A stretch of 64,000 nt of DNA, taken from the NCBI RefSeq assembly GCF_003790525.1, contig NZ_CP033633.1; one strand, 5' to 3'. Source of the stretch: Escherichia coli (lineage in GTDB: Bacteria; Pseudomonadota; Gammaproteobacteria; Enterobacterales; Enterobacteriaceae). The notes under the pieces were generated by a model. It was not told the DNA's origin. It saw only the letters and a list, made by a program, of their open reading frames with translations, and ran no database searches. This document shows positions 15,816 through 19,856 of the stretch, in pieces; positions within the stretch are counted from its first letter, which is position 1; each line of letters starts with the position of its first letter. Position numbers and translations under genes: made by a program.

Positions 15816-16814
15816 ATGAAGAAGGTCCTTTGCGCGTTAGGCTTGATGTTCACCGCCGTCAGTTCCGCGCTGGCAACAACCTACCCCCTGACGATTGAAA
15901 ACTGCGGCTATCAGGAGACCTTCACCCGGCCGCCGGAGCGCGTGGTCGCGCTGGGGCAAAATACGGTCGAAATTCTGCTGCTGCTCGGGCTGCAAAAGCA
16001 GGTGGTCGCCAGCGCCTTCTGGCCGACCAACGTTTTACCGCAGCTGGCTGAGCAAAACGCGAAGATTAAAACCTTGACGGTGGAAATTCCGAGCCTGGAA
16101 TCGGTGCTGGCGCAAAATCCTGATTTCGTTCCCGCCCAGTTGCCGCTGCTGCTGGGGCCGGAAAGCAAAGTCGCCAGGCGTGAAGATCTCGCCACCGTCG
16201 GCGTGAACAGCTACGTCTCACCGGGGGTGTGCGCCACCAAAAAGGCCACCGGCGATATGTACGGCAGCCGGCAAAAGCTGTGGGATATGACCTGGCTGTA
16301 TCAGGAAATTAGCGATTTTTCCCGCATTTTCAACGTCGAAGATCGTGGTCAGGCGCTGATTGCCGATTTCAAAAAACGTGAAGCCGACCTGCGCCAGGAG
16401 TTTGGTAAAAGCAAAAAGGATCTCTCCTTCGTCTTCTGGTTCTCCAGCGCCTCACCTTCGGCCGATGCCTATGTCGGCGGCAAAAACAGCGCCTCCGGAT
16501 TTATCGCCAGCGTGCTGGGCGGACATAATGCGATTACCTCCGAAACCGAGTGGCCCACGGTGAGCTGGGAGAGCATTATTGCCGCCAACCCGGATGTGAT
16601 CGTGGTCGCCAGCCTGGATCGTAACCGCTGGGCGCTGGATAAAGCCGAGGAGAAGATCAAATTCCTCAAAAGCGATCCCGCCGTCAGCCAGCTGGAGGCG
16701 GTGAAAAAAGGCCATATCGTGGTCATGGACGGTCAGGCGATGAATCCGACCATTCGCACGCTTTACGGCGCGGAGCAGGTGGGCGAGCAGCTGAGAAAAA
16801 TGGGGCTGAACTGA
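15816..16814 (+). CDS. ABC transporter periplasmic substrate-binding protein (iron-chelate/siderophore type)
   Basis: Signal peptide; 332 aa; first gene of a binding protein-permease-ATPase operon; high GC. Confidence 0.7.
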   Translation: MKKVLCALGLMFTAVSSALATTYPLTIENCGYQETFTRPPERVVALGQNTVEILLLLGLQKQVVASAFWPTNVLPQLAEQNAKIKTLTVEIPSLESVLAQNPDFVPAQLPLLLGPESKVARREDLATVGVNSYVSPGVCATKKATGDMYGSRQKLWDMTWLYQEISDFSRIFNVEDRGQALIADFKKREADLRQEFGKSKKDLSFVFWFSSASPSADAYVGGKNSASGFIASVLGGHNAITSETEWPTVSWESIIAANPDVIVVASLDRNRWALDKAEEKIKFLKSDPAVSQLEAVKKGHIVVMDGQAMNPTIRTLYGAEQVGEQLRKMGLN

Positions 16815-17851
16815 TGAGCGTCGGCGCGATTGAGACGTGCCGCAGCATACTGCTCACCGGCTGGTGTGTACTGGCAGCGATCGTGCTGGCGCTGGTGATC
16901 GCTGTGGGCGTCAGCGTTGGCGAGCTGGCCATCCCGCTGCAGAATGTCTTTTATGCTATCAGCAACAGAACCGGCTTAACCGCTGAGCCGCTCAACCATA
17001 TCTATGAGAGCGTTATCTGGGATTTCCGCCTCAGCCGCGCGCTGGTCGCCGCCTGCTGCGGCGCCGGCCTCGCTATCTGCGGTGTCGTGCTGCAAAGCTT
17101 GCTGAAGAATGCCCTCGCCGAACCCTACGTCCTCGGCGTCTCCGCCGGGGCCTCCACCGGCGCGGTGTCGATCGTGGTGCTGGGCCTTGGCTCTGGCGCA
17201 ATTTCCCTCTCGGCAGGCGCCTTTGCCGGGGCCTTCGCCGCCTTCGCCTTTGTCGCCTTGCTGACTAACGGCGCGCGCGGCGGCAATGAGCGTACGATTC
17301 TTGCGGGCGTCGCCGCCTCGCAGTTATTTAACGCCATCACGGCCTATACCATCAGCACCACCGCCAGCGCGCAGCAGGCGCGCGATGTGATGTTCTGGCT
17401 GCTGGGCAGCTTCAGCGGCGTCCGCTGGCCCGAATTCCAGTTGGTCATCGTGGTGGTGCTCGCGGGTCTGGCGGTCTGCCTGTGGTATGCCCGGGCGCTG
17501 GACGCGTTCACCTTCGGCGACGATGCCGCCGCCTCGCTGGGGATTGCTGTGCCGCGCGTGCGCCTGATCCTCTTCACCACTGCGGCGCTGATCACCGCCA
17601 CCATCGTCAGCATGGCCGGCTCAATCGGCTTTGTTGGCCTGGTGGTGCCGCACGTGATGCGTTTCTTCTTTGGCCCGCTGCACCGAACGTTGCTGATCGC
17701 CAGCGCGCTGGCAGGGGCGATATTGATGGTACTGGCGGACATTGCGTCGCGCCTGCTGATTGCCCCGCAAAGTCTGCCCGTTGGGGTAGTAACCGCCCTG
17801 GTTGGGGTGCCTTTCTTTGCCGTGATTATCTACCGCTCAAGGAATAAGTGA
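16814..17851 (+). CDS. ABC transporter permease (FecCD-type)
   Basis: 345-aa highly hydrophobic ORF with multiple transmembrane segments; overlaps neighbours. Confidence 0.75.
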   Translation: MSVGAIETCRSILLTGWCVLAAIVLALVIAVGVSVGELAIPLQNVFYAISNRTGLTAEPLNHIYESVIWDFRLSRALVAACCGAGLAICGVVLQSLLKNALAEPYVLGVSAGASTGAVSIVVLGLGSGAISLSAGAFAGAFAAFAFVALLTNGARGGNERTILAGVAASQLFNAITAYTISTTASAQQARDVMFWLLGSFSGVRWPEFQLVIVVVLAGLAVCLWYARALDAFTFGDDAAASLGIAVPRVRLILFTTAALITATIVSMAGSIGFVGLVVPHVMRFFFGPLHRTLLIASALAGAILMVLADIASRLLIAPQSLPVGVVTALVGVPFFAVIIYRSRNK

Positions 17852-18612
17852 TGAGTATTTGCGCTGAAAATATCACCTGGAAGGCAGGCAAAAAGGTCAT
17901 CGTCAATAATGTCTCGCTGCGGGTGCCGCGCGGAGAAACGGTCGGACTGCTGGGGCCCAACGGCTGCGGCAAATCCTCGCTGCTGCGCGTTCTGGCGGGC
18001 CTGCGCCGCCCGGATGCAGGTCGCGTCACCCTCGACGGCCAGGATATCGCCCGGATGGCGAAAAAGCAGCTCGCCCGCCGCGTGGCTTGCGTCGAGCAAC
18101 ACGGCATGACCGAGGCCAATATGCGGGTGCGCGACGTCGTGCGCCTGGGACGCATTCCCCACCACTCTCCGTTCTCAAACTGGAGCGCTCAGGATGACGA
18201 AGCGATTGCCGCCGCGCTGCAGCGGGTAGCGATGCTGGAGAAAAGCGAACAGGGATGGTTAAGCCTCTCCGGCGGCGAGCGGCAGCGGGTGCATATCGCC
18301 CGCGCGCTGGCGCAGAGCCCGAGCGAAATCCTGCTGGATGAGCCGACCAACCATCTGGATATACACCATCAGATGCAGTTAATGCAGTTGATCAGCGAGC
18401 TGCCGGTAACCAGCATTGTGGCCATTCACGATCTTAACCATGCCGCGATGTTCTGCGATTCGCTGATCGTGATGCAGCAGGGGCAGATCCTCGCCAGCGG
18501 GACGCCGGAGGAGATTTTGTCCGAAGCGCTGCTGTGGGACGTTTTCCGGGTGAAAACCAAAATCGAGATCTCCCCTTACCACGGCAAAAAGCACATTCAT
18601 TTCATCGTTTAG
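17848..18612 (+). CDS. ABC transporter ATP-binding protein
   Basis: Walker A GPNGCGKSS, signature LSGGERQRV, Walker B ILLDEPT. Confidence 0.85.
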   Translation: MMSICAENITWKAGKKVIVNNVSLRVPRGETVGLLGPNGCGKSSLLRVLAGLRRPDAGRVTLDGQDIARMAKKQLARRVACVEQHGMTEANMRVRDVVRLGRIPHHSPFSNWSAQDDEAIAAALQRVAMLEKSEQGWLSLSGGERQRVHIARALAQSPSEILLDEPTNHLDIHHQMQLMQLISELPVTSIVAIHDLNHAAMFCDSLIVMQQGQILASGTPEEILSEALLWDVFRVKTKIEISPYHGKKHIHFIV

Positions 18613-18623
18613 GTTGGGCGGAT

Positions 18624-19856
18624 ATGCCTCTTTTCTCCCTGCGCCCTGCGGCAACCCTCTGGCCTCCGGTGTTACTGGGAAGCCAGTTCGTTTTTAATAT
18701 TGGCTTTTACGCGGTCGTACCTTTCCTCGCCCTCTTCCTGCGCGACGACATGCTGCTCTCAGGCGGACTTATCGGCCTGATCCTCGGGCTGCGTACCTTC
18801 TCCCAACAGGGGATGTTTATCCTCGGCGGGACGCTGGCCGACCGCTATGGCGCTAAGGCGATCATTCTCGCCGGCTGCGTCGTTCGCGTCGCCGGTTTTC
18901 TCCTGCTGGCGTGCGGGGCGTCGCTGTGGCCCATTATCCTTGGCGCCTGCCTGACCGGCGTCGGCGGCGCCCTGTTCTCCCCGTCGATAGAGGCCCTGCT
19001 GGCGCGGGCCGGTACCCACAGCCAGGCCAACGGGAAACGCAGCCGCGCCGAGTGGTTTGCGCTGTTTGCGGTATGCGGTGAACTGGGAGCGGTGATCGGC
19101 CCGGTGGCCGGAGGCGTGCTGAGCGGGATCGGCTTTCGACATATCGCCCTCGCCGGCGCGGGAATATTTCTTCTGGCGCTGGCGGTGCTCTTTTTCGGTC
19201 TGCCCGCCGACGGGCACACGACAACAACGCGCAGACGAGTCCCATGGTGGACGCCTTTGCGCCAGCCGCGCTTTGTCGCGTTTATTCTCGCCTACAGCTC
19301 ATGGCTGTTGAGCTACAACCAACTCTACCTCGCTCTGCCGGTGGAGATCCAACGTTCCGGCGGCCGCGAGCAGGATCTGGCGCCGCTCTTTATGCTGGCC
19401 TCGCTGTTGATTATCACCCTCCAGCTCCCTCTCGCCCGCTTCGCCCGGCGAATGGGCGCCGTGCGCATCCTGCCGGTGGGCTTTCTGCTGCTGTCGGCTT
19501 CCTTTGCCAGCGTGGCGTTATTCGCCGCCGCCCCACCCGCCGAAAGTTGGCTGCGGTTAATGCCGGCGGCTAGTTTTGTCACGCTGCTCACCCTCGGCCA
19601 GATGCTGTTAGTGCCCGCAGCCAAGGATCTGATCCCGCTGTTCGCCGAGGAGTCGACGCTGGGCGCCCACTACGGAGCGCTCGCCACCGCAGGAGGGTGC
19701 GCGGTGTTAGCCGGGAATTTACTGCTCGGTCATTTACTTGACCAGGCGCTCATTCCGTCGCCGCAGGCGGTTTATCCCTGGCTTCTGCTGGCGCTGTTTC
19801 CGCTGTGCAGCGCCGTCGCCCTGCGGGCGATCTGTCGCCCGCTGGCGGCAACATGA
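18624..19856 (+). CDS. MFS-type transporter
   Basis: ~410 aa, 12 predicted hydrophobic helices; start taken at ATG 18624 (ORF-track start 18534 overlaps the ATPase). Confidence 0.65.
   Translation: MPLFSLRPAATLWPPVLLGSQFVFNIGFYAVVPFLALFLRDDMLLSGGLIGLILGLRTFSQQGMFILGGTLADRYGAKAIILAGCVVRVAGFLLLACGASLWPIILGACLTGVGGALFSPSIEALLARAGTHSQANGKRSRAEWFALFAVCGELGAVIGPVAGGVLSGIGFRHIALAGAGIFLLALAVLFFGLPADGHTTTTRRRVPWWTPLRQPRFVAFILAYSSWLLSYNQLYLALPVEIQRSGGREQDLAPLFMLASLLIITLQLPLARFARRMGAVRILPVGFLLLSASFASVALFAAAPPAESWLRLMPAASFVTLLTLGQMLLVPAAKDLIPLFAEESTLGAHYGALATAGGCAVLAGNLLLGHLLDQALIPSPQAVYPWLLLALFPLCSAVALRAICRPLAAT

Follow-up and report, generated by a model that had tools for sequence, protein, structure and literature searches.

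The window analysed here is a stretch of 64,000 nucleotides of Escherichia coli DNA, and the block at positions 15816-19856 carries four intact genes on one strand, in the order binding protein, permease, ATPase and MFS transporter (Table 1). An earlier note had read this set of genes from the letters alone, and both the checked open reading frame coordinates and the Pfam matches (Peripla_BP_2, FecCD, ABC_tran and MFS_1) bear that reading out. The overlapping stops and starts that it described are present at the A/B and B/C junctions, both of which read TGATG and thereby overlap by 1 nt; the MFS gene lies clear of eitC, and its ATG at 18624 is 12 nt after the eitC stop. With this start, gene spacing and length agree with those seen in the orthologs from Pantoea, Serratia and Kluyvera, whereas a GTG at 18534 is only the mechanical start of the reading frame and RefSeq places the start at a GTG at 18669.

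Table 1. Features of the eitABCD locus and its flanks (positions in the 64,000-nucleotide window)
Feature	Position	Strand	Description
Resolvase gene, Tn3-family transposon remnant	14871-15461	+	Pfam Resolvase E 1e-38, plus HTH_7
38-bp terminal inverted repeat, Tn21/Tn3 type	15470-15507		CTTAGCGTGGGATATTTTCCGTTTTCCAAGCGGACCCC, read from the sequence
IS3-family transposase C-terminal remnant (left scar)	15508-15666	+	Pfam rve_3 E 6.5e-9
Candidate sigma-70 promoter	15706-15734	+	-35 TTGACA 15706-15711, 17-nt spacer, -10 TATAAA 15729-15734
Fur-box-like operator	15745-15763		GATAATGAGTTTCATTTGC; just 3' of the -10 hexamer, 53 nt 5' of the eitA ATG
eitA	15816-16814	+	Periplasmic substrate-binding protein, 332 aa, N-terminal signal peptide ending ...SSALA
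eitB	16814-17851	+	FecCD/BtuC-type permease, 345 aa
eitC	17851-18612	+	ABC ATPase, 253 aa; in-frame GTG 17848 is a possible alternative start
eitD	18624-19856	+	MFS transporter, drug:H+ antiporter type, 410 aa from ATG 18624
Colicin/pyocin DNase-immunity gene, 3' two-thirds	19934-20109	-	Pfam Colicin_Pyocin E 5e-26, profile 28-82 of 82
IS1A, complete copy	about 20110-20877	+	IS1A annotation in near-identical plasmids; ends read

The block is an operon that already has a name, eitABCD, and that was originally reported from two plasmids of avian-pathogenic E. coli, pAPEC-O2-ColV and pAPEC-O1-ColBM; the plasmid carrying it here is a chicken-type IncK2/Z ColBM plasmid. An ABC iron-uptake locus of ~4 kb under this name is common to pChi7122-2, pAPEC-O2-ColV, pAPEC-O1-ColBM and others (PMC3251573), and the copies on these three plasmids represent the same locus, with equal gene order and sizes. 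Plasmids of chicken E. coli carry the same DNA without a difference (100% identity), and 214 plasmid records match it at 99% or more; for the near-identical locus (at least 99% identity), the gene names in the newest RefSeq records are eitA, eitC and eitD. Copies of the ColV type share 99.7-99.8% of their nucleotides with the window copy, the ColV copy differing at 6 nt over the four genes, and their flanks match as well, with the resolvase and the IS3 scar on the left and the colicin-immunity gene on the right. The window copy differs from these in its IncK2/Z ColBM-type backbone and in the IS1 that truncates the immunity gene. Among 5,426 complete E. coli genomes, 218 (4%) carry the operon, and 224 of its 229 places in such genomes are on plasmids. 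The backbones that hold the cassette are mutually unrelated (IncF ColV, IncFIA/FIC, IncK2/Z and Klebsiella IncF). In the four plasmid variants compared, all four reading frames are intact and free of internal stops, and the most diverged plasmid pair shows 15 synonymous against 10 replacement changes. The operon is common on plasmids of poultry and extraintestinal E. coli.

The earlier note had also placed the block between insertion sequence scars. Both elements are real; however, only the left one belongs to the border shared with other plasmids. On that side, the rve_3 (integrase core domain) match covers 15508-15663 but only profile positions 33-67 of 67, and the part of the scar from 15553 onward is kept in every eit plasmid compared. 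The adjacent 38-bp repeat resembles the Tn21 repeat at about 29 of 38 positions. IS5075 targets terminal inverted repeats of the Tn21/Tn3 type, and in pPK8275 an IS5075 has inserted at window position 15486, inside this repeat. The left scar thus consists of an IS3-family remnant that has a Tn3-type end next to it. The resolvase remnant on this flank is common to ColV-type eit plasmids, and homology with pAPEC-O2-211A-ColV extends over 14553-20109. On the right, pAPEC-O2-211A-ColV carries the colicin-immunity gene complete, followed by an HNH remnant, and the part missing here does not occur elsewhere in the 64-kb window. The immunity gene travels with the cassette in other plasmids, which have different right-hand neighbours at the IS1A point, and the IS1A border occurs in this plasmid only. 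The IS1 is a later insertion into the colicin-immunity gene and not the cassette's own edge.

The foreign composition noted earlier is borne out by measurement. The block has a G+C content of 61.9%, compared with a mean of 51.5% for the window, 52.4% in the 5 kb to its left and 45.0% in the 5 kb to its right, and third codon positions within it reach 73-80%. Among all 4,041-bp windows of the 64 kb, the highest value (62.0%) begins at 15840 and is the eit block itself, whereas the 104 windows of this size that do not overlap the block average 51.3% (sd 4.6), with a maximum of 59.1. Orthologs with 83-89% protein identity are found in Serratia, Raoultella, Pantoea, Kluyvera and others; in Serratia, Kluyvera, Pantoea and others they stand by themselves in the chromosome, and nucleotide homology with a Pantoea dispersa megaplasmid covers exactly 15706-19844. 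Because G+C content in the window peaks at the block, which also has such orthologs elsewhere and matches the P. dispersa megaplasmid in this way, we propose a foreign origin: the operon would derive from a more G+C-rich member of the Enterobacterales in which the three- or four-gene unit is chromosomal, and would later have spread among plasmids along with the IS3-family scar and the colicin-immunity remnant. The unit travels alone across Enterobacterales and alpha-proteobacteria. The eitCBAD locus of the Cronobacter pESA3/pCTU1 type shares the A-B-C order, 76% nucleotide identity in the ABC genes and a conserved Fur-like box, but its eitD is read in the direction away from eitA and has changed further (72% nucleotide identity). 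The virulence plasmid in question occurs throughout the genus and carries the locus stably (PMC7074816).

A candidate sigma-70 promoter of near-consensus sequence lies upstream of eitA. A consensus scanner missed it because its rule demands that the sixth base of the -10 hexamer be T; both hexamers are kept in the Pantoea, S. rubidaea and Kluyvera orthologs. The Fur-like box that follows matches GATAATGATAATCATTATC at 15 of 19 positions when read on the minus strand and at 14 when read on the plus strand, and among ~128,000 positions (the whole window, both strands) it is the only one to reach 15 of 19. Its core, AATGAnTTTCATTTGCAT, is kept in five of six aligned orthologous loci whose flanks have diverged, and the sixth, in Serratia fonticola, has a different Fur-like box at the same place. 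At eitA there is the feature by which a Fur-regulon member is recognised, a predicted Fur box overlapping the promoter, and the E. coli copies keep promoter and operator intact. Since the best Fur-box match follows the promoter and is kept in five loci, with a similar one in the sixth, eit is likely to be under iron regulation.

EitA and EitC can be assigned by equivalog models with curated cut-offs. EitA scores 696.1 bits against NCBIfam NF052484, ‘siderophore ABC transporter substrate-binding protein EitA’ (cut-off 640, profile 1-328 of 328), in addition to Pfam Peripla_BP_2 (E 9e-29), and EitC scores 518.7 bits against NF052485 (cut-off 485, profile 1-251 of 251), with Pfam ABC_tran at E 7e-36. 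EitB matches Pfam FecCD over profile positions 2-311 of 311 (E 5e-86), and its nearest NCBIfam models all score under their cut-offs. EitC has the Walker A motif GPNGCGKS, the signature LSGGERQR and the H-loop HD, and so the Peripla_BP_2 binder, FecCD permease and ATPase with all three motifs that define a type II (BtuCD-like) importer are present together. As eitB is the sole permease gene, a homodimer is implied. BtuCD-BtuF and HmuUV-HmuT likewise consist of one Peripla_BP_2-class binder, one FecCD-family permease gene (homodimer) and one ATPase gene; in contrast to them, Eit lacks a riboswitch, has the extra MFS gene and scores under their model cut-offs.

The earlier note favoured a metal-chelate or siderophore uptake cassette and named a non-metal class for the binding protein as the outcome that would tell against it. 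Profile classification gave no such class: EitA belongs to the chelate-binding Peripla_BP_2 family and passes the EitA equivalog, which supports the proposed role. Matches in a fold search are confined to Peripla_BP_2-class binding proteins, and the solved structures to which EitA comes nearest belong to binders of siderophores and heme and to structural-genomics proteins that are uncharacterised, the closest being 4mlz from the actinobacterium Jonesia (30% identity). Neighbours of known ligand, by sequence or fold, bind siderophore or heme, with the molybdate binder MolA as the sole exception. Heme-binding-protein matches span the C-terminal lobe only, and in the predicted model of EitA residues 70-120 and 137-151, in the ligand-binding lobe, have pLDDT <50. 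We consider a metal chelate of the ferric siderophore type to be the most likely ligand of EitA.

Three other identities were considered and set aside on their scores. For a heme importer, IsdE reaches 34 of the 299 bits required and the heme ATPase 232.5 of 261; for a cobalamin importer, BtuF reaches 27 of 234 and BtuC 220 of 461. The nearest curated non-Eit family for EitA, EitB and EitC alike is the actinobacterial ‘putative F420-0 ABC transporter’ (TIGR03868/03869/03873), whose own substrate is hypothesised and which is not an iron system by name. The respective scores of 174, 284 and 283 bits lie under the curated cut-offs of 392.4, 437.35 and 372.4, and Eit is therefore not a member of this family.

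DHA1-type antiporters are recognised by an MFS_1 domain together with two motifs of well-established significance, motif A, which lies between TM2 and TM3, and the antiporter motif C (GxxxGPxxGG), which lies in TM5. EitD has the domain (Pfam E 1e-30), motif A as GGTLADRYGAK at residue 68 and the antiporter motif C as GAVIGPVAGG at residue 155, features that it shares with the DHA1 efflux pumps MdtH and NorA; a crude hydropathy count gives 11 peaks for a presumed 12 TM helices. Among solved chains, NorA and EfpA, both efflux pumps, and the MFS transporter 3wdo come nearest to EitD, and its nearest NCBIfam model is MdtH (119 bits, under the cut-off of 469). Because motif C is present, EitD is probably an exporter. 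On K. pneumoniae plasmids, a homolog of EitD forms part of a different ABC operon that is likewise metal-related. That operon is of Nik/Opp type and has zigA and a Fur-family repressor nearby, which makes its context a zinc-type one. Exporters of the MFS class also occur within metallophore operons, CntE being an example. EitD resembles these in being co-transcribed with a chelate importer, but unlike them the eit cassette is without biosynthesis genes for a product that EitD would export.

Gram-negative siderophore uptake systems are further recognised by a linked TonB-dependent receptor and/or siderophore biosynthesis genes, which eit lacks. No outer-membrane receptor or siderophore biosynthesis gene adjoins it in any of ten loci examined, from E. 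coli, Klebsiella, Pantoea, Cronobacter, Rhizobium, Ponticoccus, Serratia (two species) and Kluyvera. The 64-kb window holds no TonB-dependent receptor or siderophore biosynthesis gene, its only open reading frames of receptor size or larger being an autotransporter and a relaxase. Eit must therefore use an unlinked receptor, or a ligand small enough for porins, and must draw on chelators made by other systems or organisms.

Taken together, eitABCD is a plasmid-borne operon, probably regulated by iron, for a chelate importer to which a pump of efflux type is attached. When iron is sufficient, Fur on the conserved operator just 3' of the strong sigma-70 promoter would keep the operon off, and iron limitation would release this repression. 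EitA would be exported to the periplasm and capture a metal chelate, most likely one of the ferric siderophore type, and would then dock on an EitB2-EitC2 importer of BtuCD/HmuUV architecture, in which ATP hydrolysis would drive the ligand into the cytoplasm. EitD, as a proton-antiport MFS protein of efflux type, would most likely return the iron-free ligand or a related compound outward. To this account as a whole (the eitABCD identity, Fur control, chelate import, efflux by EitD and a G+C-rich origin) we assign a probability of 0.8.

The growth test under iron limitation that the earlier note had proposed has been published for the eitABCD plasmid pChi7122-2: dipyridyl, heme and hemoglobin brought out no advantage in growth, CAS agar showed no signal, and there was no eit-dependent phenotype (PMC3251573); our search of the accessible literature found no eit mutant or binding study. 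The operon might thus be functionally silent cargo of IS and plasmid traffic in E. coli, the needed receptor or ligand being absent and no iron benefit accruing. Such an explanation would agree with the negative assays on CAS agar and on iron-restricted media with heme or hemoglobin (PMC3251573), with the lack of a receptor gene in the window or beside eit at any locus examined, with the presence of the cassette in only 4% of complete genomes and with the identity of at least 99% among copies, which suggests recent spread. Nevertheless, it sits poorly with the four intact reading frames in every variant compared, in which replacements do not outnumber synonymous changes, with the intact promoter and Fur-like operator of the E. 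coli copies and with persistence on several unrelated backbones, and many unlinked TonB-dependent receptors of E. coli could serve. We regard silence as unlikely, though a serious contender.

Considerably less probable, in our view, is that EitABC imports something other than a ferric siderophore, be it a metallated cofactor (heme or a corrinoid), a chelate of another metal or an F420-0-like non-metal cofactor. The second-best NCBIfam matches of all three proteins do form the putative F420-0 set, and the BtuC, corrinoid and heme ATPase models come next in score, but all of these fall far under their cut-offs. A single permease gene is also the arrangement in BtuCD-F, HmuTUV and MolABC, MolA is among the fold neighbours of EitA, and the K. 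pneumoniae operon with the EitD homolog has its zinc-type surroundings. However, no cobalamin or other riboswitch was found upstream of eitA by Rfam match, and the 5' region carries the conserved Fur-type box instead; the resemblance of EitA to heme binders is limited to the C-terminal lobe, and heme and hemoglobin brought no growth benefit (PMC3251573).

A further reading, which we offer as a long shot, is that Eit is a self-contained, Fur-controlled pair of import and efflux functions that has no need of a dedicated outer-membrane receptor. An iron chelate that is small or unconventional would then enter through EitABC, and EitD would pump out the ligand once it is spent. Examples of such a chelate are a hydrolysis fragment able to pass through porins and a chelator of plant or host origin. 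If true, this would explain the solo travel of the unit, the nearest relatives that are not classical siderophore systems and the negative siderophore and heme assays.

The window adds one more copy, from the poultry reservoir, of an already known system that is routinely counted as a ‘virulence’ or iron-acquisition marker in the typing of avian-pathogenic and extraintestinal E. coli. Three features are useful for characterising Eit: its promoter and Fur-type operator are conserved, EitD bears an efflux-type signature, and a linked receptor is consistently lacking. These features suggest that regulation by iron and Fur should take priority, followed by ligand screens with purified EitA in preference to growth assays.

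Given that EitA and EitC both pass their NCBIfam equivalog cut-offs over full length (696 bits versus 640 and 519 bits versus 485, respectively), that the locus is matched on many plasmids, that eitA, eitC and eitD appear as gene names in one recent RefSeq record, and that it has been described in print, the GC-rich block is the already known eitABCD operon. When used as a nucleotide query, a 4.25-kb eit segment proved to be 100% identical to several chicken E. coli plasmids, matched 214 plasmid records at 99% identity or more, and was present over at least 80% of its length in 221 records. 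It occurs in 218 of 5,426 complete E. coli genomes and is plasmid-borne in 224 of 229 places. An approximately 4-kb eitABCD 'ABC iron uptake locus' has been described on pAPEC-O2-ColV, pAPEC-O1-ColBM, pChi7122-2, pHK01, pEG356 and pAA (PMC3251573), and an orthologous locus, eitCBAD, has been reported from Cronobacter plasmids pESA3 and pCTU1 (PMC7074816). The window as a whole matches a chicken IncK2/Z conjugative plasmid, also with colicin B/M genes, EAST1 and an autotransporter. The observation made in the earlier note is confirmed and its interpretation is supported, with small corrections.

Our ORF list agrees exactly with the four same-strand genes proposed in that note, and their Pfam E-values range from 1e-28 to 1e-86. 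The block is also richer in G+C than its surroundings, as had been claimed (61.9% versus 51.5% for the window, with third-position values of 73–80%). Over the 64 kb, the highest G+C content of any 4,041-bp window (62.0%, start 15840) falls on the eit block, and the 104 windows clear of this block have a mean of 51.3% (sd 4.6). The proposed overlap of stops and starts holds for eitA/eitB and eitB/eitC, where each junction is TGATG with one base common to both codons. The genes eitC and eitD do not overlap. The GTG at 18534 is merely the first possible eitD start in the open frame and RefSeq begins the gene at a GTG at 18669, while the ATG at 18624, 12 nt 3' of the eitC stop, gives the spacing and the length (409–416 aa) seen in the Pantoea, Serratia fonticola and Kluyvera orthologs.

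Coordinates of the eit genes and their flanking elements in the window
Feature	Coordinates	Strand	Description
Resolvase gene	14871-15461		left flank of eit
38-bp terminal inverted repeat	15470-15507		Tn21/Tn3-type; adjoins the resolvase gene
IS3-family transposase remnant	15508-15663		left flank; match to the final 35 positions of the integrase-core profile rve_3 (E 6.5e-9)
eitA	15816-16814	+	332 aa; Pfam Peripla_BP_2
eitB	16814-17851	+	345 aa; Pfam FecCD
eitC	17848/17851-18612	+	253-254 aa; Pfam ABC_tran
eitD (MFS gene)	end at 19856	+	Pfam MFS_1
Colicin/pyocin DNase-immunity gene fragment	19934-20109	-	Pfam PF01320, E 5e-26
IS1A, complete	20110-20877		right of eit

Homology to the window extends over 14553–20109 in a ColV plasmid, over 15218–19934 in an IncFIA/FIC plasmid (where ISEcp1-blaCTX-M-14 follows), and from 15553 to at least 20109 in a Klebsiella IncF plasmid, and these limits define a common core of 15553–19934. 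The ortholog on a Pantoea dispersa megaplasmid aligns at 77.5% nucleotide identity over 15706–19844, which takes in the promoter region and the genes up to eitD but nothing further. This alignment marks 15706–19844 as the imported segment and the remainder as plasmid context. On the left, the transposase remnant previously noted is real, as judged by its integrase-core match. The neighbouring 38-bp repeat, which we presume to be akin to the Tn21 terminal repeat, is interrupted by IS5075 at window position 15486 in the comparison plasmid pPK8275, and this fits the known preference of IS5075 for Tn21/Tn3-type terminal repeats. A ParE-family toxin (PF05016) and ribbon-helix-helix antitoxin (PF01402) pair lies at 13811–14370 (− strand), flanked by an IS66-family element on one side and the resolvase gene on the other. 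More broadly, the window is a heavy IS mosaic of IS66, IS3, IS1 and IS1414 (with astA in related plasmids) plus a group II intron, and it includes ~780-bp repeats of 99% identity (5253–6031, 10493–11269, 57067–57323) that also match the IS1414/ISEc8 flank in pPK8275.

The IS1 on the right, which the earlier note took for a scar, is real and complete, but it does not record the arrival of the cassette. It cuts the immunity gene at 20109/20110, and in a ColV-type eit plasmid this gene is whole and has an HNH (colicin DNase) remnant after it. Thus, the IS1A copy is a later event in this plasmid lineage, and, by the arrangement in ColV-type plasmids, the cassette adjoins a relic of an E-type colicin operon. 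A search across the window for the lost part of the immunity gene, in case IS1 had moved it, found nothing. The same IS1A forms an inverted pair with another copy (22362–23129) around an endonuclease/exonuclease/phosphatase-family gene (21332–22195, − strand; G+C 37–40%) whose product has a signal peptide. We considered this pair as a composite transposon that produced the right border, although simple composite transposition of 20110–23129 is unsupported because the 9-bp flanks differ. A third IS1 lies at ~31805–32580 and abuts the 3' end of an ORF at 32571–33482 (− strand) that has colicin-like 'Cloacin' (PF03515, E 4e-100) and Pyocin_S domains. This ORF is therefore probably a bacteriocin gene that has lost its C-terminal part.

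Upstream of eitA, a perfect −35 element (TTGACA, 15706–15711), a 17-nt spacer and TATAAA (15729–15734) were found by eye and are backed by conservation; a consensus promoter scan did not pick up this promoter because its rule demands T at position 6. Directly 3' of TATAAA is GATAATGAGTTTCATTTGC (15745–15763). Scoring of all positions in the window, on either strand, for agreement with the 19-bp Fur consensus put this site first (15/19 on the − strand, 14/19 on the + strand), with 15 reached nowhere else and 14 at just two other sites. Upstream regions were aligned from E. coli, P. dispersa, Cronobacter sakazakii, Serratia rubidaea, S. fonticola and Kluyvera georgiana, and the core AATGAnTTTCATTTGCAT is almost unchanged in five of the six, with diverging flanks. 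S. fonticola has a differing box in the same place, seemingly nearer the Fur consensus. We interpret the conserved core as the phylogenetic footprint of a putative Fur-type operator overlapping the transcription start, and from this we infer Fur binding. An Rfam search in and before the operon for a riboswitch or other RNA element found none, and a sub-threshold ribozyme match inside eitC (E 0.65) was attributed to chance. Our literature search for an eit Fur-box report, mutant or substrate returned solely typing or prevalence papers and one negative phenotype study.

Single genes for a binding protein, a FecCD permease and an ATPase make up the type II importer architecture of BtuCD-F and HmuUV-T, which eit resembles in this respect. 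The translated EitA ORF begins with a Sec-type signal peptide (…AVSSALA/TTYP), and the Walker A, signature and H-loop motifs of EitC are all intact. Since EitD has MFS motif A (GGTLADRYGAK) and antiporter motif C (GAVIGPVAGG), and efflux pumps (MdtH, NorA and EfpA) are among its best matches, export seems the likelier direction. By sequence and fold, the nearest neighbours of EitA are uncharacterised structural-genomics proteins such as 4mlz (Jonesia, 30% identity), followed by binders of hydroxamate, carboxylate and catecholate siderophores, heme binders, and the molybdate binder MolA. These relatives point to a 'metal-chelate binder', in line with the class proposed earlier, and do not fix the ligand. 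The AlphaFold2 model (mean pLDDT 66) falls below 50 over residues 70–120 and 137–151 in the ligand-binding lobe, so the fold search confirms protein class only. We envisage that Fur would repress the operon, that EitABC would import a ferric chelate, and that EitD might efflux spent or excess ligand in a manner coupled to import.

Some observations complicate a simple siderophore reading. No TonB-dependent receptor or biosynthesis gene lies beside eit in the ten loci examined (three E. coli plasmids, one Klebsiella plasmid, a Pantoea megaplasmid, a Cronobacter plasmid, Rhizobium etli p42f, a Ponticoccus plasmid, and the S. rubidaea, S. fonticola and Kluyvera chromosomes), and no such receptor was found in the whole window. 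The neighbours are unrelated at every locus examined and permit no inference of substrate. Furthermore, in the pChi7122-2 study CAS agar showed no signal attributable to eit, and growth did not improve with dipyridyl alone, heme or hemoglobin (PMC3251573). For each of the three ABC components, the closest curated family after Eit is a hypothetical actinobacterial 'F420-0' transporter, and eit scores far under its cut-offs.

The missing receptor, the 'F420-0' kinship and the negative assays keep two other explanations alive. The cassette might be inert cargo in E. coli, as the lack of partner genes and the negative phenotypes would allow, although every variant compared retains the four ORFs intact, with synonymous changes at least equal in number to replacements (15 versus 10 in the most diverged pair). 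Alternatively, EitABC might bind a ligand other than a classical ferric siderophore, which would agree with the 'F420-0' kinship as well as with the absent partner genes and the negative siderophore and heme assays. We also considered whether an eitD-like MFS gene on K. pneumoniae plasmids is shiF of the aerobactin locus, an identity that would link Eit to aerobactin, and rejected this because annotation puts the gene in a Nik/Opp-type ABC operon. On one such plasmid (NZ_CP034046.1, locus L004, 7278–13519), the EitD homolog (66% nucleotide identity) accompanies two ABC ATPases, an Opp/Nik-type binding protein and a fused permease, with zigA, hisI and a Fur-family repressor gene a few kb away. 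The arrangement resembles a zinc- or metallophore-related uptake operon that has an MFS of its own, and it occurs on several hundred Klebsiella plasmids.

EitA orthologs with 83–89% identity occur in S. rubidaea, S. fonticola, Raoultella, P. dispersa, Kluyvera, Lelliottia, Kosakonia, Phytobacter, Buttiauxella and Atlantibacter, frequently on megabase contigs, and no donor for the E. coli genes above 89% protein identity was found. As a unit of three or four genes, the orthologs lie in surroundings unrelated to one another (S. rubidaea, S. fonticola, Kluyvera). The G+C content of those measured (57.8% in Pantoea, 58.0% in Kluyvera, 53–58% in Serratia) is below that of the E. coli copy, to which Cronobacter eit (61.5%) is close. 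Two S. fonticola loci (L013 and L014, 10001–14042) carry an identical eitABCD unit with different left neighbours: one strain has smpB there and the other a CbtA/CbeA toxin–antitoxin island. This difference suggests that the unit lies on the margin of an integration hotspot adjacent to ssrA/smpB.
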